From positions 1 through 64,000 of the IMG/VR virus record IMGVR_UViG_3300012956_000018: 64,000 nt of DNA, one strand, 5' to 3'. Under the pieces are notes generated by a model that ran no database searches, was not told the origin of the DNA, and saw nothing but the letters and a program-made list of their open reading frames with translations. A program made the translations under genes and the position numbers. The number at the start of each line of letters is the position of its first letter. The first letter of the stretch is position 1. The DNA comes from a virus. Its lineage: Duplodnaviria; Caudoviricetes. Below, piece after piece: positions 537 to 17,217 of the stretch.

Positions 537-1028
537 ATGTCTCACTGGACATGGAAATACTGGTGGAATAAAGATACTATAGGAGTTGCTGTAGCTATAC
601 CATGTATTATTTTATTGGCATGGGTAATAAGTATATTATTCTTTGATAAGCCAGTTACTAAATTGGCATCTATATCAATTATTGTTTCAGCAATTATAGT
701 ATGTTATTTAGTAGTAGACAGATCGGATAGTTCTTGGAAGTTTGTAGCTGCTCTAGCTGTGGCAGTATTTATGGGTATATCCCTAATGGGGTGTGCTACT
801 CATACTCCATCTATTAGTTTTGGAGTAGGATATCAAATAGACAAACAGACTGTAGGAGATAATCCTGCAGGAGTAGTTAGTTTGAAGATGCCTATATGGA
901 CTAGTGAAAGATGTGTAAATTACTCATACATATATGGTGAATACTTGCATATCTCTTCAGTTCCTAATTTCTTTGACAAATCTACTGTAGATCAGGCTAA
1001 CTTAATGTTCTCTATTCCATTAAGATAA
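537..1028 (+). CDS. membrane protein (about 3 TM helices plus internal lipobox-like LMGC)
   Basis: GGAG RBS upstream of ATG 537; three hydrophobic segments followed by a soluble domain. Confidence 0.6.
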   Translation: MSHWTWKYWWNKDTIGVAVAIPCIILLAWVISILFFDKPVTKLASISIIVSAIIVCYLVVDRSDSSWKFVAALAVAVFMGISLMGCATHTPSISFGVGYQIDKQTVGDNPAGVVSLKMPIWTSERCVNYSYIYGEYLHISSVPNFFDKSTVDQANLMFSIPLR

Positions 1029-1065
1029 TCATGTTCATCAATAGTTTTATTGAGAGATAAGATTA

Positions 1066-4000
1066 ATGTACAAGATACCTAAAGGATTTCATTTTCTAAG
1101 AGAATCAGGACTAGCAGTGCCTGGTACTCCTGTGTCTAGACGTATCGCTGAGAGACTTACCCTAACTGAGGCTAAGTCTAATGGGCAATTACGTATTGTG
1201 CTACCTGCTACTGTATTGGATACTGAAAATCTGAATCATAGAACGTATCCTACTAAGGTAATGAAGAAAGCTATAGAAAGTAAAGAATTTAGAGCTAAGA
1301 TGGAAGGAGGGTACCTTCTGTGCTCAGGAGACGATCACCCAGATACTCCATATGTAAAGCCTATTCTAGCTAGTCACTTAGTTACAAATGCTTTTATAAA
1401 GAAGATTGAGGGTGTTAGCTACTTAATGAATGAGTGGTTGACTTTACCTACTGACAATGGTCGTAATCTTCGTGGAGTATTCGAAGGTGGAGCCGCTATT
1501 GGAGTATCAATAAGAGGATTCGGTAGATCTGCAGATAATGAGTCTTCAGCATCTGGGGTTATTGAGGAGTATGAATACTTAGGTACTGATGCTGTCGGAG
1601 AGCCATCAGCTAAATTATACGCTGGTATTAAAGTCCCTCATGTAGAGGTCTTAGAATGTGTTACTCCTAAGATTACTCTAAGCGAGTCTAGAGCTATAGT
1701 AGAAGACCGTAAGCACTATAATGATAAAGATGAGTGGGTAAAAGATGTTGTCAGATTAGGTCTTAAATTAAATGCTGATAAAGACACAGCATGGAATCCA
1801 GATATTCCTGAAGTAACACGAGCATCTTGGATGGCCAATCATAATCGAGGATGGATTATCGAAGCATCCATTAGTACCTTAGGATCAAGTGATTATGATA
1901 ATTTCGATGATTGGAAAGGTGATGCTTTAGATAAGGGATATGATGTTAGTAATGATAATGGAGTGTTCTACGCATCACGTAATGGCGATGTAAGAGGAGC
2001 TTTTGACAAGAATAGCAACTCTGGATATTTAGAATCTAGAATTGTTGAATCTATGGAAGTAGGAAAAAGAGTAAAAGTAATTACTCAGGATTCTCCATAT
2101 TACAATAAGTCGGGTAAGATTGTTAAGTCTTACATTGTAAGTAATGATCGCGGATCAATGAGATATGGTGTAGTGTTCGATGACGGATCAGCTAGCGATT
2201 TCTGGTATAGAGATTTAGTAGAAGAGTCTTTTACTAAAGATAATGAAGGATGGTGTGTTGTTACTGCTGGTAACAAAGTGAAAGCTGGCCCGTATACTTA
2301 TAAGAATGATGCTAGAACTGTTATAGATAGAAACCCTAACTGGGAAGGGTTATCTATACTTTGGGGCACAAAAGACTCTAATAATTCTTACGTTAAAACT
2401 TCAGCTAGTGATACTAGAAATTCTGAAGCCACTGAGTGTGGAGGAGATCTTCCACCTGCTCCAATCATCAAGAAAGATGATGAAGAAGATACTCATGAAT
2501 CAGTAAAAGAAGCATTTTATTCAAATAAAGATGCTTGGATTAATGATATGAAAGAACATGGGGCTGCTAGCTTTGAAGAAGATGGTAGTGCTGTATATGC
2601 CTATTCTTCTGAAAAGAAAATACTAGGTGTTTGGAGTAATACTGAAAATCAAGGAATAACTATAGGAGAATCCAAATCCTATGCTGTAGGCGACAGAATC
2701 TCATGGAAAGATATAGCATATGGATCAGTAAGCGATACTCAACAAGCATCAGGAAAGATAGTCGATATTCAAGGCTCAAATATTACAGTAGTGAGAGATG
2801 ACGATAATTCTACTGAAATAATTGATGTATCTTCGATTAATGAAGCTAGAGATAAAAAGTCTTATAAAGTAGGAGATACTATTTATTGGGATGAAGAAGA
2901 CCCAGGAGAAATATTAGGAAGATTCACAACTATGTCAGGAATGGTGACTGATGTACAGAGAAATGGATATATAGTAAGGCGAGATGATGATGATACTGAA
3001 GAATTGATTCAGTTTTCCTGGGTTAATGAGGCTGTTTATTCTGATTTTAATGCATGGAAGATTGGAGCTTCTTCGTTTGGAGCAGTGACATTTACCACTA
3101 AAGACGATGATGAGTATGCTCAAGATCCTAATAAGAAGATAGTTGGTATATGGTCTAGTAAGATGAAGAAAGGATTAACAGGTAGTGGAGTGGAAGCTAT
3201 GATTAGTAGACTAGAGTCTAAGAGTGTATTTAAAGAGTGGATAGATAATTATTACCTAGTAAAGAAGACCGCTACTACCGCTCCAGGTGGAGATGATGGT
3301 CACACTCATAATTATGACCCATTAATTAAGCACGGTATCACAGGCCCAGGTGGACCCGATAGCCATACTCATGTATTTAGTATCTCACTAGGTGAGACTG
3401 CTCCAGGAGGTACTGATGGTCATACTCATTTAATGGATTTTGCTATAGTACCTGTTGAATCTTTAATTAAATCTTCTAATAAAGATAAACATAGTTTAAT
3501 AGAGAATATTAATTCTTTAGTTAGCCATGTTCACCCATCTGATTTTAATGCTATATTAACAGTAGCTAAAAATTATTTAGGGTATTTAGCTAAGGATAGT
3601 ATTAGTATAGAGAGTGTTTTGAATAAGGCTCATTGGAAGACTCTTGAGTCTATGCAAAATGTATTATGCAATTCTAAATTTTCTTATATTACTCATAGTT
3701 CTATTTCCAATACAGAGGCAAGTAAGATGAAGAAGATAAAAGAGGAAATATTAGGAGGTGATGAAGTATCTATTCAGTCGCCAAATCCTAATAATGCTAC
3801 TGCAGATAAGGATAGTGCAGATACGCTAGGTGGAGATTCTTCTGATGAGAATCAGGATCAAGGACCACTAAATGCTACTGCTGACGAAGATGATGCTCCA
3901 TTATTAGGAGGCGATTCGTCTACTAGTCAAGATGAATCTGATAATAATAGTACATCAGAGTCAAAAAAGAAATTGAAAGAAGACATATTAGATGCTGATG

Positions 4001-5265
4001 CTGGTGGTCAAGATGCAGCTGATTCAAACAAATTAGCCGATGATGATAAGGACGAGCTACCTGTGCCGCCTATATCAGAAGGAGCATTAGGCGGCCATCC
4101 AGTTGCTGCTAGTATTATTTCTACTAATCAACATGATAGGGTTATGAGAGTAGTTCCTAATAATCCTGATCACTGGCAGTTAGTAAGAGATATTCTCAAA
4201 GCTAATGGAGCTACCCTGGCTCCTGATGTGCCTGGTGAAGTTAGAGTAGTAGTACCAGCAGGAGTGCTTGATCCTATGAGTCATTATCACATCAATGATG
4301 TCTCAGCTAATCCGCTACCAGTAAGTCCTGCTGCTATGGACTCAGTAAGAAACATTGTATCAGCAGTTATATCCAAGAATGGTAAAGCTGCAGGTATGCG
4401 TAAGCTGATTTCTATAGAATCTGAGCTTAGTCAGCTGAAGGATGTCAAGAAATTGTCTGAAGGAGTAAAGAATTTAGATAATATTAAGAATGAATTATTT
4501 GGATCTTCACTTGCGCCTGATAGAGATAGTAAAATGATGAAGACGGAAAAGATATCCGATGATGTAAATAATCTAGCAAAAATTATTGTCGAGGCATCTA
4601 AGATAGTATCTTCACTAGAGAAATCTAGTGTATCTCCTGAAGTAATGGCTTCAGTTAAGTCACTAGTAGAGTATGTTCAAAATTGTGAGGATTTAGTGGC
4701 TAGAGGGGCGTCTTTACTAGATACTAAAGATAAAGAAGTCTCCAAGTTAATAGAAGGTCTTCACAGTGTGTTTGTCACCGATACTCCAGTAAAGAATCTA
4801 AGTGAAGCTCTAGATATTATTCAACAGAGTGGAAAGATGATCGGTGGATTAAAATCCCAGTTGAATGATGCTAGTAATAGGACTACTACTATAATGACTC
4901 TTATCGATAATATAAGAGTATTTTACCGTAAAGAATTTAATACACTCAAGAAGCGTAATGAAGCTAGCACCAAGCTAGTCGAAGCACTACGATCCCGAAT
5001 AAGACTCATGGTAGATACTAAGGAATCTTCTAAGTACGATGCTCCTAAGGATATTGCTGAAGCTGCTGACGCAGTTATTGCTAAATATCCTGCTCTTCGC
5101 ATATTCCGAGAAGAGTTGATTAAGATAGCTAAGAAGTCAGACGATGTTCATGGTCTTGCTAAGAAGTATCTTGGAATTCGCGAGACTAGTATTAGCTATA
5201 CTGAAGCTAAGGATACTCGTAAATCAGGAACAGGTGAGAGAAGCATAGTTCCTGGCATGATTTAA
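1066..5265 (+). CDS. prohead core protease (T4 gp21-like) fused to repeated cargo modules and an acidic/coiled-coil scaffold
   Basis: N-terminal ~200 aa has ENLNHRTYP, DHP...ASH and GVSIRGFG (catalytic His/Ser motifs of gp21-type proteases); the rest is modular with many (I/L/V)xE-S/A sites; directly upstream of the MCP. Confidence 0.85.
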   Translation: MYKIPKGFHFLRESGLAVPGTPVSRRIAERLTLTEAKSNGQLRIVLPATVLDTENLNHRTYPTKVMKKAIESKEFRAKMEGGYLLCSGDDHPDTPYVKPILASHLVTNAFIKKIEGVSYLMNEWLTLPTDNGRNLRGVFEGGAAIGVSIRGFGRSADNESSASGVIEEYEYLGTDAVGEPSAKLYAGIKVPHVEVLECVTPKITLSESRAIVEDRKHYNDKDEWVKDVVRLGLKLNADKDTAWNPDIPEVTRASWMANHNRGWIIEASISTLGSSDYDNFDDWKGDALDKGYDVSNDNGVFYASRNGDVRGAFDKNSNSGYLESRIVESMEVGKRVKVITQDSPYYNKSGKIVKSYIVSNDRGSMRYGVVFDDGSASDFWYRDLVEESFTKDNEGWCVVTAGNKVKAGPYTYKNDARTVIDRNPNWEGLSILWGTKDSNNSYVKTSASDTRNSEATECGGDLPPAPIIKKDDEEDTHESVKEAFYSNKDAWINDMKEHGAASFEEDGSAVYAYSSEKKILGVWSNTENQGITIGESKSYAVGDRISWKDIAYGSVSDTQQASGKIVDIQGSNITVVRDDDNSTEIIDVSSINEARDKKSYKVGDTIYWDEEDPGEILGRFTTMSGMVTDVQRNGYIVRRDDDDTEELIQFSWVNEAVYSDFNAWKIGASSFGAVTFTTKDDDEYAQDPNKKIVGIWSSKMKKGLTGSGVEAMISRLESKSVFKEWIDNYYLVKKTATTAPGGDDGHTHNYDPLIKHGITGPGGPDSHTHVFSISLGETAPGGTDGHTHLMDFAIVPVESLIKSSNKDKHSLIENINSLVSHVHPSDFNAILTVAKNYLGYLAKDSISIESVLNKAHWKTLESMQNVLCNSKFSYITHSSISNTEASKMKKIKEEILGGDEVSIQSPNPNNATADKDSADTLGGDSSDENQDQGPLNATADEDDAPLLGGDSSTSQDESDNNSTSESKKKLKEDILDADAGGQDAADSNKLADDDKDELPVPPISEGALGGHPVAASIISTNQHDRVMRVVPNNPDHWQLVRDILKANGATLAPDVPGEVRVVVPAGVLDPMSHYHINDVSANPLPVSPAAMDSVRNIVSAVISKNGKAAGMRKLISIESELSQLKDVKKLSEGVKNLDNIKNELFGSSLAPDRDSKMMKTEKISDDVNNLAKIIVEASKIVSSLEKSSVSPEVMASVKSLVEYVQNCEDLVARGASLLDTKDKEVSKLIEGLHSVFVTDTPVKNLSEALDIIQQSGKMIGGLKSQLNDASNRTTTIMTLIDNIRVFYRKEFNTLKKRNEASTKLVEALRSRIRLMVDTKESSKYDAPKDIAEAADAVIAKYPALRIFREELIKIAKKSDDVHGLAKKYLGIRETSISYTEAKDTRKSGTGERSIVPGMI

Positions 5266-5294
5266 TACCTGTGTTTTATTTGGAGATTATATAA

Positions 5295-6746
5295 ATGGAC
5301 TCGATTATTACTGAAATCGCTGGTGGCAATCGTCTTGTTACTGAGAGTAATAGAGATGCTGATGCCGAAAGAGCCCTTCTTAAAGAAGGATATGATGTTA
5401 TCGAAACTCATCCTAAGTGGAGAGATCGTTACCGTAGTTTAGTAGAGAAGGTGGATAAAGGCAATCTACGTGAAAGACGAGTTGCTGCTTCTACTTTCGT
5501 CGTTATGAGAAATCAGGAAAATTACCTGAATACTCTTAATGAAGCTACTATTATGAATTCTCTGGGGCCTCTAGCTCCTAGTGTGATGGATATTGTTCGC
5601 ATATTCTTCCCGAATATGATAGCAAATCTCATTGCTGAGATTCAGCCTATCGCTCAGCCTAATAGCTCAGTGTTAACTGTAAAGCCTCGCTATACTAACA
5701 GCGGTGGTGGAGTTAATGCTGGAGATGAAGTGTTTAAGAAAGGTACTGATGGCAATTATGCGTCGGATACTGTTACTTGGGCTCTAGGTACTGGTAATGC
5801 TGTTGCGACCAACTTCACTGCCACCCTCACTCCAGCTCCTATCCGTCCAGGCACTGTGAGAGTGTATGTGAATGGAGCAAGTATTGCTGCTGATAACGGT
5901 GATGGAGGGTTCCATGGAGCTGCTCTTAGTACCGGTACATTGAACTATACTTCTGGCGCTATTAGTGTAACTTTCGGCACTGCTCCAGCTGCTGCTGCTG
6001 CTATTACCTTAGAGTATAGGTACGATTATGAAATCAATGTTGACAATCTGAGAGGATTGGATATTGGTCTCAATCTTGTGCCTGTTAATGCCAAGCCTCA
6101 TCCTTTGAAACTGACTTGGTCAGTAGCGTCACAACTAGCTGCTCAGGCTCAGTATTCACTGGATGTTGAATCTACTCTTGCTGATCTAGCAGCTCAGTTT
6201 ATTCGTAAGGAGAGAGACTGGGCTCTTGTTAGCAGGATCTCTAATGCTGCGACTGCTGTGACTGATCTTAATTTTGATGCCACTGTCCCTAATAGTGGTA
6301 ATGCTCTTACTAAGAAGCAGCACTATCAGGATTGGGGTCTGAAGTTACGTCGTGCATCGAGCTTTATTTATAATAAGAATCAGAGAGGTAATGTTAGTTT
6401 CGTGTTAGCAGGCATCAATGCTGCTGACGTGATTAGTGCTCAGGCTAACTTTATTCCTGAGCCAACTGTTGTTCCAATCGGTGCTTACAAGATCGGTACC
6501 CTTGATGGTGTAGTGGATGTCATTCTTGATGCTTCTATGGATGCGAATACCTATGTGTTCGGATTCCGTGGTATGCAGCTGGGTGATGCTGCTATGATCA
6601 TTGCTGAGTGGATTCCTATCTTCGTAACTCCAACTTGGCAGTCGCCAAATCTGCAGGGTCAGCAGGGCTTACTCAGTATGTATGATTACTTACTGAATAA
6701 TCCTGACTACTATGCTAAGGGCACTCTGTCTGGTTATACTGCTTAA
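5295..6746 (+). CDS. major capsid protein (T4 gp23-like) with an inserted beta-rich domain
   Basis: IVRIFFPNMIANLIAEIQPI, VPVNAKPHPLKLTWSVASQLAAQAQYSLDVE and YKIGTLDG match gp23-family patterns; propeptide with LVTE-S and LNE-A sites; GGAG RBS; hairpin terminator downstream. Confidence 0.92.
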   Translation: MDSIITEIAGGNRLVTESNRDADAERALLKEGYDVIETHPKWRDRYRSLVEKVDKGNLRERRVAASTFVVMRNQENYLNTLNEATIMNSLGPLAPSVMDIVRIFFPNMIANLIAEIQPIAQPNSSVLTVKPRYTNSGGGVNAGDEVFKKGTDGNYASDTVTWALGTGNAVATNFTATLTPAPIRPGTVRVYVNGASIAADNGDGGFHGAALSTGTLNYTSGAISVTFGTAPAAAAAITLEYRYDYEINVDNLRGLDIGLNLVPVNAKPHPLKLTWSVASQLAAQAQYSLDVESTLADLAAQFIRKERDWALVSRISNAATAVTDLNFDATVPNSGNALTKKQHYQDWGLKLRRASSFIYNKNQRGNVSFVLAGINAADVISAQANFIPEPTVVPIGAYKIGTLDGVVDVILDASMDANTYVFGFRGMQLGDAAMIIAEWIPIFVTPTWQSPNLQGQQGLLSMYDYLLNNPDYYAKGTLSGYTA

Positions 6747-7729: not shown

Positions 7730-10700
7730 ATGGCTGATGGAACACGATTAAATGATGGTACTGGTGGCGATCTAATAGCTACTGATGATATCACTGGAGG
7801 TGGAGTAGCTAATAATCAGAAAGTGCAGAGAATTAAAGTAGGGTTTGGTACTGATAATAATTATGTAGACGTAGATGCTACTACCAATAGACTACCTGTA
7901 GATATTCAATCTATTCCAGCTGGCACTAACAATATAGGTGACATAGACGTATTAACTCTACCGTCAGCTACAGTAGCTGGAACTACATCGAAGACTGCTG
8001 ATTTAGATACTGGAGTAGGCACCGATAATGTTATGTTAGTTGGCCTAGCTCTACCTGCTTCAGGTGGAGCAGTAGTAGGCGGCTCTTCTGCTAATCCTAT
8101 ACGTGTCGATCCAGTAGGCACTACTCCTCAGCCAGTATCTGGCACTGTTACCGTAAATCCTCATGATGTAGGATCTATTACTGTAGGAGTAGTTCCAGGA
8201 GTAGGGTCGACTAATCTAGGTAAGGCTGAAGATGCTGCTCATTCTTCTGGCGATACTGGTGTTATGTTACTGGCTGTTAGACGAGATGTAGCAACAGCTG
8301 GTGTAAATGCAGATGGTGATTATGCTGCACTATCTATAACTTCTACTGGATCATTAAGAGTAGACGCATCTGGATCAAACATTCCAATTACTGATGCTGG
8401 CGGATCTCTCACTGTAGATGCCCCTGTAGGTACTCCAGTTAACGTACAAATAGGCGATGGAATTAGAACAGCTAGTGTTAGAGATACTGGGGCTAGCGAT
8501 TCACTTAACGTTGCTATAGTAGATGCTGCAGGTAATCAGATAGTTAATTTTGGAGGATCTGGAGGAGGCACCCAATACCAAGAAGATAATCCTCATGCTT
8601 CTGGTGATACTGGCACTGTTGCTTTAGTAGTAAGAAGAGATACCCCTATATCTTCATCTAATCTAGATGGAGACTACTCAGTACTATCAGTAAATAGTGT
8701 AGGCAGATTATATACTAGTGCTACTATAGACTCAGCACTACCTGCTGGAAGTAATGCTATAGGTAGCGTGAGTATTAATGCGGCTTTACCTACCGGCACT
8801 AATACTGTAGGATCCATAGCCAGTGTCACTACTTCCATAACTCCAGGTACTGCTGCAGCTAACTTAGGTAAGGCTGAAGATGCTGTTCATACTTCTGGAG
8901 ATACAGGAGTACTATCTCTAGCTGTGCGTAGAGATTCAGTTGCATCAGGAACTAGTGCTGATGGTGACTACGCTACTTTAAATGTTAATTCGTCTGGCAG
9001 ACTCTATACTACTGCTACTATCGATACTGCCTTGCCGGCAGGATCAAATACTATAGGTAATGTTGGAATATCTTCAGCTATTCCTGCAGGCACTAACAAT
9101 ATAGGCGACGTGGATGTCTTGACAGTAGTAACAGGCACTGGCCCGACTAATCTAGGTAAGGCTGTAGATGCTGTTGCTGGAGCTACTGATACTGGTGTAG
9201 CTGCTCTAGCTGTGAGAGATGATGCTTTAGCTGCTTTGGCTGTTGCTGATGGCGACTATACTCATCTTAGAGTAACCTCTACTGGAGCTCTATGGGTAGA
9301 AGTTACTAATGGCATTAATGGAGTTAATGAAGATACTCCTCAGGTAGATGGCGGTGAGGCTTTGCCAGTCTTAGCTGTCAGAAGAGACGTAGCTGCATCA
9401 GGAGTAACTGCTGATGGTGATTATGCTTATCTATCAGTAGATGCATCAGGAGCATTAAGAGTAACTGGTGGCGGATCTGGAGCTCAGTATGTAGAAGATA
9501 CTCCGTCGACTGGGGCTGAATCATTAACATTAGTAGGAGCAGTTCGTCAGGATACTTTAGCTACTAGTACTAGTGCTGATGGTGATTATGCTAATTTAAA
9601 AGTTGCTGCTAATGGTAGACTGTATACTTCTTCAACTATAGATGCTGCTTTGCCAACAGGTGGTAATACCATCGGTTCAATTTCTAGTATAGCTACCTCA
9701 GTTACTCCAGGTACTGCTGCAGCTAACTTAGGTAAGGCTGTGGATTCTGCTCTAGGAGCTACTGATACTGGTGTAGCTGCTCTAGCTGTGAGGGATGATG
9801 CTCTATCTGCTCTTACTCCTGCTGATAATGACTATACGAATTTAAGAGTTAATTCTACTGGAGCTCTATGGGTTGCTGTGTCGAATGGAGTCCCGGCTAG
9901 AGCAGAGGACTCTGCCCAAGTAGATGGTGGAGATGGCGTAGCCATGTTAGCTGTCCGTAGAGATTCGGCTACATCTGGGGTAAGTGCTGACGGTGACTAT
10001 GCGTATTTATCAGTAGATGCTAATGGAGCATTACGTGTTGCTGGTGGGGGTGGAGGTACTCAATTTGCTGAAGATGCTGCCCATACTTCAGGAGATCTAG
10101 GAACATTAGCTCTAGTAGTCAGGCAAGATACTCTAGCATCTAGTACTTCTGCTGATGGCGATTATGCTGCACTTAAAGTGTCATCTGTAGGCAGACTATA
10201 CACTACTGCAGTTCTCGATACCGCACTACCAGCTGGTACTAATAATATCGGAGATGTGGATGTATTAACATTGCCTGTCTTACCTGCCGGTGATAACAAT
10301 ATTGGTAATGTAGATATTGTTACTCTTCCTGCTTTACCTGCGGGCACTAATAATATTGGTGATGTAGATGTCCTTACACTACCTGCATTACCGGCGGGTA
10401 CTAATAATATAGGTGACGTAGATGTACTCACCCTCCCAGCTATTCCTGCTGGTACTAATACTATAGGTAATGTTGGAATTGCTCCTAGAACTTCAGGCGG
10501 GCTATCTATATCTAGAAGTATTAATATACAATCAGCATCTTCATTAAACGTAAAAGCAAGTGCTGGCCAACTATATGGGTATTATCTATTCAATGCTGCG
10601 GCTTCTGTAAGATATGTTAAGATATATAATGCTACATCAGCGGTTGCTGGTACCGGTAATCCGGTGATTACTATACCGTTGCCTGCTGGAGCTGGAGCTA

Positions 10701-10828
10701 ATGTAGAGTGGAGTACTGGTATCGCATTCTCAACAGGTATTGCAGTAGTAGCATCTACTGGTATTGCAGATACTGATACTGGTGCTCCGACTGCTAATGA
10801 TGTAATAGGCAATTTCTTCTATGCTTAA
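7730..10828 (+). CDS. repeat-rich fibre/decoration structural protein
   Basis: Nine units of E/VD...LAVRxD...DGDY..L.V...G.L, five 18-aa PAGxNxIGxVD units, and a C-terminal beta-sandwich (KASAGQLYGYYLFN). Confidence 0.75.
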   Translation: MADGTRLNDGTGGDLIATDDITGGGVANNQKVQRIKVGFGTDNNYVDVDATTNRLPVDIQSIPAGTNNIGDIDVLTLPSATVAGTTSKTADLDTGVGTDNVMLVGLALPASGGAVVGGSSANPIRVDPVGTTPQPVSGTVTVNPHDVGSITVGVVPGVGSTNLGKAEDAAHSSGDTGVMLLAVRRDVATAGVNADGDYAALSITSTGSLRVDASGSNIPITDAGGSLTVDAPVGTPVNVQIGDGIRTASVRDTGASDSLNVAIVDAAGNQIVNFGGSGGGTQYQEDNPHASGDTGTVALVVRRDTPISSSNLDGDYSVLSVNSVGRLYTSATIDSALPAGSNAIGSVSINAALPTGTNTVGSIASVTTSITPGTAAANLGKAEDAVHTSGDTGVLSLAVRRDSVASGTSADGDYATLNVNSSGRLYTTATIDTALPAGSNTIGNVGISSAIPAGTNNIGDVDVLTVVTGTGPTNLGKAVDAVAGATDTGVAALAVRDDALAALAVADGDYTHLRVTSTGALWVEVTNGINGVNEDTPQVDGGEALPVLAVRRDVAASGVTADGDYAYLSVDASGALRVTGGGSGAQYVEDTPSTGAESLTLVGAVRQDTLATSTSADGDYANLKVAANGRLYTSSTIDAALPTGGNTIGSISSIATSVTPGTAAANLGKAVDSALGATDTGVAALAVRDDALSALTPADNDYTNLRVNSTGALWVAVSNGVPARAEDSAQVDGGDGVAMLAVRRDSATSGVSADGDYAYLSVDANGALRVAGGGGGTQFAEDAAHTSGDLGTLALVVRQDTLASSTSADGDYAALKVSSVGRLYTTAVLDTALPAGTNNIGDVDVLTLPVLPAGDNNIGNVDIVTLPALPAGTNNIGDVDVLTLPALPAGTNNIGDVDVLTLPAIPAGTNTIGNVGIAPRTSGGLSISRSINIQSASSLNVKASAGQLYGYYLFNAAASVRYVKIYNATSAVAGTGNPVITIPLPAGAGANVEWSTGIAFSTGIAVVASTGIADTDTGAPTANDVIGNFFYA
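10215..10470 (+). repeat. five ~54-bp coding tandem repeats
   Basis: PAGTNNIGDVDVLTLPAL-type units. Confidence 0.85.
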
Positions 10829-10843
10829 TAGGAGAAGTGCTTT

Positions 10844-11686
10844 ATGTTAATATTTGCTAATTCTGGATTACTTAATCCGCCATCAGTTAACCCAATATTT
10901 AGAGTTGTTGATGAGTCTCTTAGTATTAGTGAGGGTACATTATCTGTAAGAGTACTTACTAGAATATTTGGCGAATCACTAAATTTATCAGAGACATCTT
11001 GGTATTCTAGAGTATCAGCATTTGTTAAGATAGTAAATGAATCTACAAATCTATCTGAGCAACTACTGAAAAGATTATCTTATGTACGACTAGGTAATGA
11101 ATCAATAAGTATAGTAGATGTTCCATTCAGATCTAGAGTTCTCATCAAACTATTAGCAGAAATTTCAAACTTAACTGAATCGCAGAGAAGATTATTAATA
11201 GTCAGAGTAGTATTTAGTGAAATCCTGAATCTAGCAGAGTCTTCTGTACTTTGGAGAGTATTAGTAAGAGTTTATACTGAATTTTCTTCGATTGCTGAAT
11301 CTCTGCTCAGAGGATTTGTAAGATCTCGTATAATTAACGAGAGTTTATCTATAACTGATACTTTAGTAAGATTAAGATTACTAGTCAAAAGAATTAGTGA
11401 GATATTCAATATTACTGAATCTGCTATTAGACTTAGAATACTGTTTAGCATCATCTCTGATCAATTACTACTTAGCGAAGGATCCTTTACTAGACGAATA
11501 CTGATAAAGATTACAACTGATATTATTAATATCTTCGAAAATGTACTAAAGTTCGGTAATAAGATCAGAGTAATTCCAGAGTCTGTGAATTTAGTAGAGA
11601 TATTCTCAGTATTCGGTGCTATTAAGAGATTATGTATTACTGCTAAGATATTTATAGTAAACATGCTGACAAAGAAGAGATGGTGA
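10844..11686 (+). CDS. structural protein built of 12 tandem ~20-aa repeats
   Basis: Periodic xxESLxLxE...R motif through the whole ORF; GGAG RBS. Confidence 0.7.
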   Translation: MLIFANSGLLNPPSVNPIFRVVDESLSISEGTLSVRVLTRIFGESLNLSETSWYSRVSAFVKIVNESTNLSEQLLKRLSYVRLGNESISIVDVPFRSRVLIKLLAEISNLTESQRRLLIVRVVFSEILNLAESSVLWRVLVRVYTEFSSIAESLLRGFVRSRIINESLSITDTLVRLRLLVKRISEIFNITESAIRLRILFSIISDQLLLSEGSFTRRILIKITTDIINIFENVLKFGNKIRVIPESVNLVEIFSVFGAIKRLCITAKIFIVNMLTKKRW

Positions 11687-11689
11687 TAT

Positions 11690-12016
11690 ATGGCCGATAA
11701 TTTAGAAGTATTAGAAATTGATGCTGATAATATTATAAGAATATATGATTTAATAGACGAATCAACTGAAGAGAAAATTACTGGAGCCTCGGTTAGTATT
11801 GAACTAAGACTATCAACAGGAGCCTTAGCTCCAGGAGTCACTTGGCCTCTAAATTTAGCCGAAGTATCCTCTAGCCCAGGAGATTATTATGGATTTATTC
11901 CGAGACAGTCTACTCTAGACGAGTATCAAACTTATGATGTAAAAATATCAGTAAATTATAATGGAGGTTTGGGGGTATTATTTAAGAGAGCAATAGCTAA
12001 GAGGCATACTTCATGA
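11690..12016 (+). CDS. small virion structural protein (Ig-like)
   Basis: GVTWPLNLAEVSSSPGDYYGFIP motif typical of small phage beta-sandwich proteins; position in the structural operon. Confidence 0.55.
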   Translation: MADNLEVLEIDADNIIRIYDLIDESTEEKITGASVSIELRLSTGALAPGVTWPLNLAEVSSSPGDYYGFIPRQSTLDEYQTYDVKISVNYNGGLGVLFKRAIAKRHTS

Positions 12017-12213
12017 ATATTCTTGTTATATTTGGATTATTAGTATTTGGTATTATTGTCACTATTTTAGTGTTAAATTTATTAAGTAAATTCTCTCCCA
12101 GTTCAGTATTAGATTCTGAAGAGACGATAGTCGTTTGTAAAACAGATGAGAATACTGGTAAACGGAGAGTAGATTCGTCTAAAAAGCATTGGTATTCATT
12201 TCTATTTAATTAA
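12013..12213 (+). CDS. small membrane-anchored protein
   Basis: N-terminal hydrophobic helix; ATGA overlap with the previous gene. Confidence 0.55.
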   Translation: MNILVIFGLLVFGIIVTILVLNLLSKFSPSSVLDSEETIVVCKTDENTGKRRVDSSKKHWYSFLFN

Positions 12214-12225
12214 TCGGAGAATCAG

Positions 12226-12810
12226 ATGTTCAATATTTTAGTGAAAGAGAGAATCCGTGGATTTTCTAATTTAGTATTTCGCACTAAGGGAGGAATACGT
12301 ACTCCTTTATTTGATATGTTTGTTCCTCGTCACAATAATATTCTATTTATATTTGAAGGCCCAACATACGGCAAAATGCTAGTTCCTGCTCATAATATTA
12401 TTACTGATGCTGGAGATATCCACTATGCTCAGAGAGCAGTAGCAGAAACTCTTACTAATGCATTCGGTATACTCGAGTTGGGATCAGCTGGTACTCCGGG
12501 TAAGAGTGCTAATAGATCTTCATTTACTCCTATTTCAAGCACTCAGAAAGCTCATGATGCCACTTACCCGCGTCGCAATGATAATGATGCGGATAATACT
12601 GGCGCCGGTACTCGCATTGTTACTTTCCGTACTTCTTATACGGCTGCTGATTTCAATGCTACTGGTATTGCTAGAGGATGGATTACGAATACTTCGCCTG
12701 GTGCGAGTGAGCCGATTCTTACTGGCTTTACTCTGCCTAATTCTCCTTTTGATAAGTCTGCAAGTGACTCTCTGAAAGTATTTACTAATCATACCATGAA
12801 TGGAGTGTAA
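12226..12810 (+). CDS. virion structural protein
   Basis: HNIITDAG...FRTSYTAADFNATGI...FDKSASDSLKVFTNHT pattern of phage fibre-attachment proteins; GGAG RBS. Confidence 0.65.
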   Translation: MFNILVKERIRGFSNLVFRTKGGIRTPLFDMFVPRHNNILFIFEGPTYGKMLVPAHNIITDAGDIHYAQRAVAETLTNAFGILELGSAGTPGKSANRSSFTPISSTQKAHDATYPRRNDNDADNTGAGTRIVTFRTSYTAADFNATGIARGWITNTSPGASEPILTGFTLPNSPFDKSASDSLKVFTNHTMNGV

Positions 12811-12815
12811 CACTA

Positions 12816-13631
12816 GTGGCTTCTAATCTGAATAAAGTTACTCTCATACGAGATAGACTTAAAACAGATCTTGGAGATGTAGTATGGGATGTTGAGAGCA
12901 AGGATTTGATGAATTACATTAGACTAGCTTGCTTTAGATTCTATACTGCTAAGCCCATAGAGAAGCTACACAGGCAAGAAGTAAGTCTTGGTACAACTTC
13001 AGTAGATATTGAATCTCTGACTACTACAATATTCGGAGTAGATGCTGATAAATTCTATTTTCTAGGATTGGTATATTCTAATTATATGTTGCAAGGAGAA
13101 GAAATATTAAGTGGAGGATCTAATGTTAATCCATTTAACGTATTTCTATTCCAGAATCTTATGGGATATGGAGGGCCATCATCTTTAGGATCATGTACTG
13201 GAGGATCTAGAATTAGTTCTTTCAATGCTATGACCCAAGATGCTCTGGCTCCTCTACTATATGCTACTAAGAAGGATACTATTATGGGAGATGAGTCCTA
13301 TGAATGGGATCCTATAGCTCATAAAGTTAGAATAACAGCTCCAGCTGCTGGATCTGTAACTATGAGTCTTGCATATGGCTATAATGGTATTAGTGATGAT
13401 ATAAGTGATGTACCATTGTTAGGAGTAGCTTATAATTACTTAGATATTGTTGCTAATTTAGTTACTGAAGAATACTTGAAAGATCTCATTATGTCTAGAG
13501 GAACAGTTAGCCTAGCTAGCTCAGATTTTACAATAAACATTGACATAATGAAGGAGAGATATGACGATATTAAAGTCCAGAATAGAGAAAACTTAGAAAA
13601 GATAGTGTCCCCTTATATTTTAATGGCGTAG
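12816..13631 (+). CDS. neck/head-tail adaptor protein (T4 gp13-like)
   Basis: GTG start; IRDRLKTDLG...LMNYIRLACFRFY N-terminus and position between head and tail genes. Confidence 0.6.
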   Translation: MASNLNKVTLIRDRLKTDLGDVVWDVESKDLMNYIRLACFRFYTAKPIEKLHRQEVSLGTTSVDIESLTTTIFGVDADKFYFLGLVYSNYMLQGEEILSGGSNVNPFNVFLFQNLMGYGGPSSLGSCTGGSRISSFNAMTQDALAPLLYATKKDTIMGDESYEWDPIAHKVRITAPAAGSVTMSLAYGYNGISDDISDVPLLGVAYNYLDIVANLVTEEYLKDLIMSRGTVSLASSDFTINIDIMKERYDDIKVQNRENLEKIVSPYILMA

Positions 13632-13898: not shown

Positions 13899-14204
13899 AT
13901 GCCGAAATTATTATCAGTAATTGAATCTAAGTTATATACTATAAAAGATCTTCGACGTGCTGCATCAAGAGTAGGCGCTACAGTTGAAGATAATAGCACT
14001 AAGTATGAATTAGATTATCAAGTTATGTCGCCTCATGGTAAATTTTGGAAAGATTCGAATAGTGTTCACCTGGCTGTGTATACTTATAAAAATGATTTAA
14101 ATCAAGTTAGCAGTACTATACAAGATGCTATAGAAAGAATAGAATTCGGTCTTTATGACCCTGGTAAGGAAGAGTATGAGTATCAAACTGGAGAGAAATA
14201 CTGA
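13899..14204 (+). CDS. small MPKL-leader protein 1 (putative internal head protein)
   Basis: Starts MPKLLSVIES. Confidence 0.7.
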   Translation: MPKLLSVIESKLYTIKDLRRAASRVGATVEDNSTKYELDYQVMSPHGKFWKDSNSVHLAVYTYKNDLNQVSSTIQDAIERIEFGLYDPGKEEYEYQTGEKY

Positions 14205-14446
14205 TGCCTAAGCTAACTAAATTAGTATCAGAATGTATATCTGAATCTCTACTGCCAAATATTAAATCATCTGTATCTGAAATGAATACGCTAGGTATTG
14301 ATTGGGATAGATATACTTTTATATCTACCGACGGAAACAGTATAAAGATATCTATTGATGCAAAGAAACTGGTTAGAGATTATGGTAAATTTGGATTCGA
14401 CTCATACAAAGAACCGAGTGGATTTGTTACTATAGAGATTAATTGA
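14204..14446 (+). CDS. small MPKL-leader protein 2
   Basis: Starts MPKLTKLVSECISES; TGATG overlap. Confidence 0.7.
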   Translation: MPKLTKLVSECISESLLPNIKSSVSEMNTLGIDWDRYTFISTDGNSIKISIDAKKLVRDYGKFGFDSYKEPSGFVTIEIN

Positions 14447-14447
14447 T

Positions 14448-14783
14448 ATGCCTAAGCTTATAGATATTTGTGAATCTTTATATTATGATGTAGCTATATT
14501 ATATTTTCGTAATCCTTACGATGCTGATAGTGCTGCGTCTATATTACACGGTTCAAAATTACTTAAAGGATCTTTAGTAAAGTTAAATAAATCCACGGAC
14601 AGAATAATATTTAATGATATATCTAGAGATATGTATTTGAAAGCTATACAACTATTATCTGCGAATAATATTCGATTCGATCAAGAGACCCCAGAAACTA
14701 GTGTGCCCGTTGGAACATCAGTTCGTAGTGGGTTCACTAATAATGTTAACAGGGCTCAGTATAAGTATAGAGTTGCTAAATGA
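14448..14783 (+). CDS. small MPKL-leader protein 3
   Basis: Starts MPKLIDICES. Confidence 0.7.
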   Translation: MPKLIDICESLYYDVAILYFRNPYDADSAASILHGSKLLKGSLVKLNKSTDRIIFNDISRDMYLKAIQLLSANNIRFDQETPETSVPVGTSVRSGFTNNVNRAQYKYRVAK

Positions 14784-14951
14784 AAGTGATAAAGTATTCT
14801 GAAACGTTCTATAGGGCCGAGGTGCATTCGCACTCTCGATCTTATAGTCACGATAATAAGATACTAAATAGTGACTACATTATCTACTGTGTGTAAATAG
14901 TATAAAATTAATAAGATCTATTACTATAGAGATCAATTAGGAATTATATCT

Positions 14952-15133
14952 ATGCCTAAATTAATAAAACTGGAGTATTTAGTTTTGAAGTTCAAAGCTT
15001 AGGAGGGAGAATAGGAGGTAAGATTGGAGGAGCAGTAGCAGGAAAGACTTATCACAAGTGTCCTCAGTGTGGAGCAGAAGGCCGTGGGCCGTCTATGCTT
15101 AGATGGCATATGAGTAATTGCAAAAAGAAATAG
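14952..15133 (+). pseudogene. chimeric remnant: MPKL leader joined out of frame to a homing-endonuclease-like C-terminus
   Basis: ATG 14952 gives MPKLIKLEYLVLKFKA*; the -1 frame 14960-15133 gives ...QSLGGRIGGKIGG...CPQCGAEGRGPSMLRWHMSNCKKK* with no start codon. Confidence 0.6.
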
Positions 15134-15138
15134 CTGCT

Positions 15139-15735
15139 ATGGAAAATTTTAAAACAGCTTTCGATAAGACTATGGCTCATGAAGAAGGATATGCAAACGA
15201 TCCTGATGATTTAGGAGGGGAGACTATCCGTGGTATAGCTAGAGCCTATCATCCTAAGTGGCTAGGATGGGCTAAGATTGATCTTATTAAGGCTCATGGA
15301 AATACTACTGCTGAGCAAATTAATGCTATTGTAAAATCAGATCCTACACTAATTCATTTAATACTAGAATTTTATAGAGATGAGTTTTGGGATAAGATAA
15401 GAGGTGATGAATTACCTCTTGAACTATCTATGGAGATGTTCGATACTGCTGTAAACATGAGTCCATCTAGAGCTATAGAATTTCTTCAAGAAGGATTAAA
15501 TCTCAGTAATCGTAATCAAAAAGATTACCCAGATATTCTAGTAGATAGTAAATTAGGACCTACTACTATGAATACATTAAAATTATATCAAACTAAGTCT
15601 CCTAGAGATATTCAGTTTCTTATCAATATAATGAACATCCTTCAAGGATGTTACTATATTAATAGGTATCGTCAGTCTCCTACTCAAGAAAAGTATCATG
15701 GCTGGTTCAATAGGGTAATAATCAAACATGCCTAA
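15139..15735 (+). CDS. endolysin, glycoside hydrolase family 108 with peptidoglycan-binding domain
   Basis: HEEGYANDPDDLGGETIRGI, FYRDEFWD, MFDTAVNM, DSKLGPTT, GWFNRV. Confidence 0.9.
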   Translation: MENFKTAFDKTMAHEEGYANDPDDLGGETIRGIARAYHPKWLGWAKIDLIKAHGNTTAEQINAIVKSDPTLIHLILEFYRDEFWDKIRGDELPLELSMEMFDTAVNMSPSRAIEFLQEGLNLSNRNQKDYPDILVDSKLGPTTMNTLKLYQTKSPRDIQFLINIMNILQGCYYINRYRQSPTQEKYHGWFNRVIIKHA

Positions 15736-16039
15736 ATTAATATCGATTAAAGATAGTATAGAATCTCAATGGCCGAATTTAGTAGCATTTGTACATGGAG
15801 CATTTCAAGCTAATAGCGGTGCTCCTAAATCTAAAGCTATAGATTTCCTAAATAATGAACTAAAGATTAATTCTAATATTAAAAATCTTTACGATCTTGC
15901 AGATAAGTCTCTTGTTACTATATTCGGTACTATAAGTAATATTAAGATTGCTGGTATGGATGCTGATACCGGAGATAATAGTAGTCAAGGAAAAATTATT
16001 CCTGCATCTGCTATTAGTATACTAGATAATGCGTATTAG
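15728..16039 (+). CDS. small MPKL-leader protein 4
   Basis: Starts MPKLISIKDSIES. Confidence 0.7.
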   Translation: MPKLISIKDSIESQWPNLVAFVHGAFQANSGAPKSKAIDFLNNELKINSNIKNLYDLADKSLVTIFGTISNIKIAGMDADTGDNSSQGKIIPASAISILDNAY

Positions 16040-16041
16040 AT

Positions 16042-16242
16042 ATGCCTAAGCTTATTTCAGTTAAGGGGATGAAATTAACAGCAAATCGTGACAACAATAG
16101 CAGATTTATTGCTATTGTATCATCTAAAGAAGAAGCTGCTAGTATTATAGATAATATGGAAGCGAGTGGTACTTGGCCTGAGGGATTTGATGCTATTTTA
16201 GATAATATATGGCTGTATACTGATAAGTGGGAATCTCTTTGA
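16042..16242 (+). CDS. small MPKL-leader protein 5
   Basis: Starts MPKLISVKG. Confidence 0.65.
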   Translation: MPKLISVKGMKLTANRDNNSRFIAIVSSKEEAASIIDNMEASGTWPEGFDAILDNIWLYTDKWESL

Positions 16243-16445
16243 TGTCTAAGCTATTAAAACTAGACGGCATAGCTTTGCTGTATTTTACTAGCTTTGAAAG
16301 CTGGTCGGCTAAGGCTATCGAATTAGGCTATGATAGATTAGATAAAGATAAAAACGCTAAAGCTATAAATCCTGATACAGGCGAAATAGTAGGTGGATGG
16401 GACTCTAATTCTAAATTTTGGTGGATAAGAGATAAAGATGCCTAA
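16242..16445 (+). CDS. small MSKL-leader protein 6; free-standing copy of a protease module
   Basis: TGATG overlap; MSKLLKLDG...FTSFESWSAKAIELGY...AINPDTGEIVGGWDS resembles four modules inside 1066..5265. Confidence 0.7.
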   Translation: MSKLLKLDGIALLYFTSFESWSAKAIELGYDRLDKDKNAKAINPDTGEIVGGWDSNSKFWWIRDKDA

Positions 16446-16671
16446 TCTTATAGATATTATTGAAACTGATGGGTTAGATCTTAATATGATAGGCGTAGAT
16501 AGCGATTTATTTGCTATAAGAATAAATAATATTAAATATAAATATAGACCCATAAATATGTCTCCTCAGGAATTAGCAGTAAAATTTTCAAAGATGTCAG
16601 TATTTAGTAAGGGCAAAGCCCTAGCGTGGTTAAAGAAGAACTCTGAATTAGCAGATAAGTCTGCTATTTGA
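16438..16671 (+). CDS. small MPNL-leader protein 7
   Basis: Starts MPNLIDIIET; C-terminus KFSKMSVFSKGKALAWLKKN. Confidence 0.7.
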   Translation: MPNLIDIIETDGLDLNMIGVDSDLFAIRINNIKYKYRPINMSPQELAVKFSKMSVFSKGKALAWLKKNSELADKSAI

Positions 16672-16689
16672 TATTTTAGGAGATACACT

Positions 16690-17217
16690 GTGTTTAATGT
16701 AGTAAATATTAAAAGTAAAATGAGAAAAGTAGGTTATACTGAGAAAGTGATAAGATCAGTATGTAGTATACTGGCTCTTGAATCGAATACTCGATTACCC
16801 CACCACACTATGATTTTGGCATGCAGAAATGCTAGGATTAATGTTGATGAATTTAAGAATAAGATATTAGAATCTGATTTCAAAGTAGGCGATAAGGTAA
16901 GAGTGCCTAAAGATTTATCAGGTGAAGATAGAGATTTAATTGGAACTGTGATTAGTGCTGGGAATGCAGAAGTAAAGGTGCAATTACCTACTGGCCAAGG
17001 ACCGAGTTATCAAATAATTGTTATGGATACTGAAATCAGTAAAGAATCAGTACTAAAAGAAGATCATTTTCAGGTAGATGACAGAGTGATGACTAAAGAT
17101 GGTGATACCGGTAAAGTCACTAGTATTCTTAATTATGGTACTGATGATGAAGTATATATGATAAAGCTGGACAATGGTAGTATTAGAGACTATAGACCTA
17201 GTGAGTTGGTACTTTAA
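16690..17217 (+). CDS. protein with two KOW/SH3-like modules
   Basis: GTG start after GGAG; ILES-DFKVGDKVRV and VLKE-DHFQVDDRVMT...GKVTSI. Confidence 0.7.
   Translation: MFNVVNIKSKMRKVGYTEKVIRSVCSILALESNTRLPHHTMILACRNARINVDEFKNKILESDFKVGDKVRVPKDLSGEDRDLIGTVISAGNAEVKVQLPTGQGPSYQIIVMDTEISKESVLKEDHFQVDDRVMTKDGDTGKVTSILNYGTDDEVYMIKLDNGSIRDYRPSELVL

Follow-up and report, generated by a model that had tools for sequence, protein, structure and literature searches.

In bacteriophage T4, the head-maturation protease (212 amino acids, aa), the scaffold gp22 and the internal proteins IPI-III and Alt are encoded by separate genes, and cargo enters the head by means of its own leader (PMC9958956, PMC5694885). 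All characterised gp21-type proteases (T4, phiKZ, 201phi2-1 and SPN3US) cut after Glu, a His/Ser/Asp triad has been reported for these enzymes, and the T4 protease cuts Alt at ITE and LTE (PMC5694885). During T4 core and internal-protein processing gp22 is broken down to peptides (PMC9958956). The herpesvirus UL26 assemblin, accompanied by UL26.5 as a shorter scaffold isoform, joins an N-terminal protease through a linker to a C-terminal scaffold with a tail in contact with the capsid protein, and the chain cleaves itself (PMC11565193). Polyvalent proteins are long head-associated chains of swappable modules that are thought to be packaged and delivered, and a rare class carries an assemblin-like peptidase, always C-terminal, that is predicted to process them (Iyer et al. 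2017, PMC5512222). Closer still is a phage clade represented by the cultured phages phiXF1 and QdP_Psa3 (PP475461.1, PV055685.1), whose protease-scaffold fusions of 465-705 aa have no or few extra modules and are annotated as hypothetical protein or head maturation protease. This study concerns a longer relative of those fusions, the 1399-aa protein P0001, which is encoded by one unbroken open reading frame (ORF) at 1066-5265 on the plus strand of the 64,000-nucleotide stretch that was analysed (the window). The window covers the first 64 kb of a viral contig of 77,090 bp in IMG/VR (IMGVR_UViG_3300012956_000018), whose completeness is estimated at about 70%.

By its sequence, P0001 is a single chain with an N-terminal protease, a variable string of small modules and a C-terminal scaffold homologous to a stand-alone gene of a relative. 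It resembles the T4 head core in its homologous protease, the gp23-type capsid protein encoded beside it, the predicted cutting after hydrophobic-x-Glu, a scaffold peppered with such sites, a putative N-terminal propeptide on the capsid protein and Glu-ending leaders of about 10 residues on small genes. However, a single chain here comprises protease, scaffold and some ten modules, so cargo would be tethered and not targeted as in T4. The herpesvirus protein has a protease of the same fold class, the same order of parts, a comparable scaffold tail and the self-cleavage that is predicted for P0001, but its protease and scaffold are not separated by a string of folded cargo modules. Its protease cleaves between Ala and Ser, a specificity that differs from the one predicted for P0001. 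P0001 shares with polyvalent proteins the long chain of swappable modules but differs in having its protease at the N-terminus, a scaffold at the end of the chain and modules that are tiny and non-enzymatic; no hallmark polyvalent domain was found in P0001 by Pfam, which recognised S77 alone, and the relative P0004 has one AAA domain. With the phiXF1/QdP_Psa3 clade it has in common a protease domain of 41-47% identity, the position before the capsid gene, a V-x-E|S site after the protease and the same C-terminal tail. Gp21-type proteases, leader-tagged internal proteins, protease-scaffold fusions and polyvalent proteins are all known, and the arrangement differs from each of them in combining an N-terminal S77 protease and a C-terminal scaffold with tiny non-enzymatic modules that each seem to be bordered by the cognate site. 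Of the proteins compared below, P0004 and those of locus L085 are metagenomic.

An earlier note on this DNA had placed a gp21-like protease of about 200 aa at the head of the chain, and profile searches bear this out. The S77 domain (residues 1-197, 1066-1656) is matched by PF03420 over residues 54-183 at 27.1 bits, barely above the cut-off of 27.0, and by PHROG 207 'head maturation protease' at 8e-15. A profile built from five clade members matches the T4 gp21 structure 5JBL at 6e-8; a phmmer search of the PDB with the P0001 domain alone gave no match, and the clade profile was required. The predicted triad consists of H91 (1336-1338), S148 (1507-1509, in GVSIRG) and D175 (1588-1590, in TDAVG), all invariant in the alignment of five clade sequences. 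S148 and D175 align with the corresponding positions of 5JBL, whereas H91 rests on clade conservation, as the 5JBL alignment has a one-residue gap beside an Ala at that point. On these matches the N-terminus of P0001 is a T4 gp21-type (S77) serine protease. Predicted self-cut sites lie near its N-terminus (LRE13|S and LTE35|A), and the domain is followed by a putative release linker (1657-1704) in which three sites are stacked: VLE197|C, LSE207|S and IVE213|D. Sites 197 and 207 keep their positions in P0004, in P0005 and across the wider clade, and the end of the protease domain is followed by the same motif in every relative.

The other end of the chain is a predicted helical scaffold (residues 1091-1399, 4336-5262), the last 310 or so residues of P0001 being helix-rich. 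Residues 1091-1374 are homologous (3e-14) to a free-standing gene of locus L085, which is taken as a scaffold gene because it is sited between the protease and capsid genes, and the same end is 28% identical to the C-terminus of P0004 (1e-23). A small module that heads the scaffold unit (residues 1006-1090, 4081-4335) has weak similarity to the N-terminus of the L085 scaffold gene (E 0.003) and to P0004. All clade members end in a conserved Pro/Gly-aromatic(/Met) tail. The scaffold contains eight [LIV]xE sites in 309 residues (about 1 per 39), a density that matches the reduction of T4 gp22 to peptides (PMC9958956). Protease and scaffold thus share one reading frame adjoining the capsid gene, which begins 30 bases after the P0001 ORF and encodes a gp23-like major capsid protein (5295-6746, plus strand; Pfam Gp23, 2.7e-26) with a candidate propeptide cut at LNE83|A just ahead of the Gp23 domain (from residue 94). 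Given the conserved ends and the shorter relatives, P0001 is a protease-scaffold fusion that has gained about 900 residues in its middle. M1071 (4276-4278) is an in-frame ATG shortly ahead of the scaffold part; a GGAG lies 11 nt upstream of it, which makes it a possible start for a scaffold-only product. It is the only such ATG among 24 internal ones, and one is expected by chance; a nested scaffold start of the UL26.5 type was considered and is unsupported at this chance-level signal.

The earlier note had described the middle as four copies of one module (Y), three KOW/SH3-like modules (K), a His-repeat module and an acidic, coiled-coil scaffold. Support for the individual modules differs. 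In self-comparison against shuffles, Y3 (residues 483-535, 2512-2670, ending IGE535|S) and Y4 (residues 656-717, 3031-3216, ending RLE717|S) match at z=13, and K2 (residues 536-593, 2671-2844, ending INE593|A) and K3 (residues 594-655, 2845-3030, ending VNE655|A) match at z=14, so that both pairs are, on this repeat signal, clear paralogues. Y1, Y2 and Y3 reach only z of about 4 among themselves. Y2 (residues 267-328, 1864-2049, ending IVE328|S) is a borderline member in a leave-out hidden Markov model (HMM) test (independent E-value 0.011), with further support from a collinear alignment. Y1 (residues 214-266, 1705-1863, ending IIE266|A) is a weak member, not significant in the leave-out profile tests, and was placed by motif and layout only. 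K1 (residues 329-386, 2050-2223, ending LVE386|E-S) gave no signal in the self-comparison and was likewise not recovered in the leave-out tests; it is assigned on layout, on its VGKRV motif, on a weak Tudor_5 match (E 0.067) and on a collinear alignment of Y2-K1 with Y3-K2 that runs across the joint. Searching the PDB with profiles made from the Y and K alignments yielded no significant match.

The remaining parts of the middle are assigned to neither family. Module X and its acidic tail (residues 387-482, 2224-2511, ending VKE482|A) were delimited with the Glu sites already known, and comparison of X with a tandem module of QdP_Psa3 was not significant (E 0.48). The His-repeat module (residues 718-799, 3217-3462) has three G-G-x-D-[GS]-H-T-H units that also appear as 33-nt DNA repeats at 3277, 3340 and 3397. 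A helix-rich segment (residues 800-893, 3463-3744), seen in a low-confidence model only, leads into an acidic low-complexity stretch (residues 894-1005, 3745-4080) with a net charge of -24 and an internal 26-aa repeat. With these segments and the L085 homology of the scaffold, this part of the earlier description holds. The His repeats (3277-3429, residues ~738-788) give six His in H-x-H pairs and recur at residues ~373-414 of P0004 and ~255-300 of P0005, so that three protease-scaffold proteins which otherwise differ have them in common. Besides a Y-like stretch of P0004 seen by eye, no other element of the middle is shared with P0004 and P0005. The conserved His pairs suggest a putative single metal site within one chain.

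The feature that may tie the modules to the protease is the distribution of Glu sites. The motif [LIV]-x-E-[SA] occurs 14 times in P0001 against 3.3 expected (p<0.0005), compared with 37 against 31 expected in the other 54 ORFs of the window (one repeat protein left out). The same excess recurs in most clade proteins, namely P0002, P0003, P0004, P0005 and the proteins of L085, L086, L087 and L088, and is absent in the partial L089. Within residues 198-720, 10 of 11 [LIV]xE sites are at joints (207, 213, 266, 328, 386/387, 482, 535, 593 and 655), and a single site (249) is within a module where shuffles predict 5.8 (P(<=1)=0.013), although the count is partly circular, since the sites were already known when joints were set for the non-repeated modules. 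Two checks are independent of the drawn joints. The local alignment of K2 with K3, left free in its flanks, stops exactly at N-E-A in both copies, and E535 falls in a linker of a confident structural model. The claim that Glu sites are commoner at boundaries than elsewhere is therefore upheld with that reservation; the junction sites listed earlier are all present and coincide with module joints, but RLE717|S does not follow the [LIV]-x-E rule.

The model in question is an AlphaFold (AF2) prediction of Y3-K2 built on a 9-row alignment of the paralogous modules. Its mean predicted local distance difference test (pLDDT) score is 88.8, and it shows two separate domains joined by an 11-residue unstructured linker that contains the E535 of IGE|S. 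Y3 is modelled as a beta-alpha-beta4 domain with block-mean pLDDT of 94-97, and K2 as a barrel with block-mean pLDDT of 68-94 and 61 at its last residue. The all-beta K2 domain superposes over its whole length on Tudor, KOW, chromo and PWWP barrels, which make up nearly all of the top rows (VIA Z 7.9-6.1, a range that the tool rates as middling; root-mean-square deviation mostly 1.3-2.6 A over ~44-59 residues). The top Foldseek matches were the DSIF/Spt5 KOW and SMN Tudor domains (best E 2e-3), while a fold search of BFVD returned unnamed small barrels only and ESM Atlas a single lead (0.76). As modelled, K2 is a five-stranded SH3-like small beta-barrel of the Tudor/KOW type at the level of fold. 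This makes the 'KOW/SH3-like' label of the earlier note right at fold level for K2, of which K3 is a paralogue; K1 is included by motif and layout. A single-sequence AlphaFold model of residues 196-1110 had a pLDDT of 34 and was not used for boundaries.

Comparison with related genes suggests that the ends of the protein are constant and the middle is not, in agreement with the expectation that module content varies among related protease genes. In 80 viral loci, ordinary S77 proteases measure ~205-215 aa, and the nearest relatives (phiXF1, QdP_Psa3 and the proteins of L086, L087 and L088) are protease-scaffold fusions of 465-705 aa with no other gene before the capsid gene. P0004 (1412 aa) is 51% identical to P0001 in the protease and 28% in the scaffold but has a different middle, in which Pfam detects an AAA ATPase (residues 695-808, 1.3e-12, Walker A GAPGCGKS) bracketed by LLE631|S and LDE919|S. 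P0005 has a further version of the middle. L085 (112.7-kb contig, 9899-12956) is a split form in which a protease with extra modules (425 aa) is followed by the scaffold (580 aa) and then the capsid gene. P0006, an unrelated protein of 321 aa from a 132-kb contig, is not a protease; it is built leader-Y-K-Y with joints VSE|T, IVE|Q and IKE|A. When viral contigs were scanned with P0004 and P0006, no match came up. P0004 also carries a twice-repeated module of ~80 residues, on contigs of up to 124 kb. The head maturation protease of Pseudomonas phage QdP_Psa3 (P0003, L003 6944-9058) has its own tandem pair of modules of ~58 residues (EFFDDEAGYY...) at residues ~378-495, which sit after the coiled coil and not before it. 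The RaK2-type 'prohead core scaffolding protein and protease' was considered as another fusion and rejected, since those genes encode only ~206 aa and the name is a legacy label.

One caveat of this study is that P0001 is alone in its 90% cluster and known from one contig, and the sole DNA run to cover its full length may have come from the source sample, so that the possibility of a chimeric assembly, or of neighbouring genes joined by sequencing error, has to be considered. The frame, however, is single and without stops. The whole stretch was recovered without differences in a 2018 activated-sludge DNA run (possibly the source sample), where the spanning Logan contig has a mean depth of 28.5. 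Additionally, pieces of the region 1000-5400, covering parts of the gene and the start of the capsid gene, were found without indels and at a minimum identity of 99% in two 2024 wastewater RNA-library runs of a different study; these are short contigs, and as RNA libraries can hold DNA they are no proof of transcription. P0004 shows the same architecture on 4 contigs. An artefact is thus very improbable, and the 1399-aa frame read by the earlier note stands. The wastewater matches also indicate that the phage, or a near-identical one, was back in wastewater six years after the sludge sample. Megablast against named phages gave no match, word-indexed protein homology searches returned the window's own proteins only, and an exhaustive HMMER search with residues 201-1399 found three relatives only.

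Y and K modules are not confined to P0001. A gene at 16242-16445 (plus strand, 67 aa) is a free-standing Y module, the best non-self match of the Y1-Y4 HMM in the six-frame window (E 8.8e-5). A second gene at 16690-17217 (plus strand, 175 aa) has two K-like modules (V-G/D-D-[KR]-V) with weak similarity to K (E 0.03-0.4), the first preceded by ILE|S. Its Pfam matches are only weak ones to NifZ and the MS_channel beta-domain, both SH3-like, and a 135-aa form from an internal start is present in the word-indexed database as P0008. Inspection of the region 13899-16671 (plus strand) also identified small genes that open with MPKL or MPNL, five of which have a leader of ~9-13 residues ending in E and followed by S, C or T (for instance SVIE|S, DICE|S and DIIE|T). 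These leaders look like the T4 capsid targeting sequence. The modules embedded in P0001 have no N-terminal leader of their own; such leaders are found on these separate genes. Elsewhere in the window, a 280-aa ORF at 10844-11686 (plus strand), which comes after a 1032-aa ORF at 7730-10828, consists of ~20-residue periodic repeats (E-S-x-N-[LI]-S-E-[STG]) with 8 [LIV]xE[SA] sites against 1.1 expected. It could encode a fibre or decoration protein, or a further substrate of the protease.

The explanation that best fits these data, to which we give a probability of roughly 55%, is that P0001 is a self-processing protease-cargo-scaffold polyprotein, drawn into the procapsid by its scaffold end and then taken apart there by its own protease, which would release itself, the modules and peptides of the scaffold. 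Co-assembly with the gp23-like capsid protein would take place through the scaffold end, with its conserved C-terminal tail, and would carry protease and modules into the procapsid. Once activated, the protease would cut after Glu in hydrophobic-x-Glu | Ser/Ala, freeing itself at 197/207/213, separating each 6-11-kDa module at its joint, chopping the scaffold roughly every 40 residues and trimming the capsid protein at LNE83|A. With almost no internal sites, the folded modules would survive and remain as small internal head proteins beside the separate leader-tagged ones. The earlier note's proposal of internal head proteins packaged in and released from the protease's own chain is partly supported, in its anatomy and in the placing of the Glu sites; cleavage at the joints, retention of the modules in the head and injection are what we infer from this arrangement.

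Several observations weigh against this explanation. The modules are acidic or neutral, whereas T4 internal proteins are basic, and they show no recognisable activity signature. If no scaffold-only product is made, the number of cargo molecules equals that of scaffold molecules, and with every scaffold copy carrying modules there would be hundreds of copies of ~55 kDa of cargo beside the DNA. RLE717|S and several E|S sites deviate from [LIV]-x-E, the AAA module of P0004 shows no depletion of bare [LIV]xE (6 against 6.4), Glu followed by Ser or Ala is also typical of flexible linkers and helices, and the joint count is partly circular. Proteomic data on the fusions of the phiXF1/QdP_Psa3 clade were looked for and none were found.

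The strongest rival is a core that serves assembly only, in the role of T4 gp22/gp67/gp68, with the modules cut but expelled or degraded before packaging, so that none are kept or delivered. The acidic character of the modules and their lack of enzymatic signatures are what such a core would suggest, the scaffold and acidic parts are rich in cut sites, like the degraded T4 core proteins (PMC9958956), and the conserved His repeat accompanies scaffold-proximal parts in three proteins. However, related phages of similar genome size (113-117 kb) assemble with fusions of 465-485 aa that do not have these modules, so the modules are dispensable for assembly. The middle is swapped between P0001 and P0004, AAA ATPase included, Y and K modules also occur as separate genes, and the rarity of sites within modules would preserve folded 6-7-kDa domains instead of yielding peptides. 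We therefore consider this rival a real but lesser possibility than release and retention. It is also conceivable, if rather unlikely, that the joints are ordinary linkers, with proteolysis releasing only the protease and the scaffold tail and the array staying as one tethered chain that could bind, for example, DNA, portal or capsid through its SH3-like domains. Barrels of the SH3/Tudor/KOW type typically bind partners, the linkers are short (~10 residues in the model) and several joints are off the strict motif. Yet an uncut array does not explain why a four-fold excess of [LIV]xE[SA] is particular to P0001 and its clade, why the motif comes after the protease domain in every relative and ahead of the Gp23 domain in the capsid protein, or why the same joints recur in P0006.

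A broader and more tentative proposal, which we regard as less probable than release within the head itself, is that the clade of phages of ~110-125 kb uses the gap between protease and scaffold as an exchangeable cassette for loading, with inserts entering every procapsid, being cut free and being delivered with the DNA. The Tudor/SH3-like and Y inserts of P0001 and the AAA ATPase of P0004 would then be loaded at scaffold-like copy numbers, by a route parallel to that of leader-tagged cargo in the same virion. If the cuts and the retention are real, this would be a natural design for high-copy loading of folded proteins into a capsid and, for phage engineers, a second packaging handle. The modules themselves are orphan 6-7-kDa domains whose relatives are limited to three proteins, which makes their role in infection a directly testable question. 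The T4 model would also be extended to a tethered polyprotein route, in which cargo is spliced between protease and scaffold and flanked by the protease's own site, and this would account for clade protease genes that span ~465 to 1412 residues.

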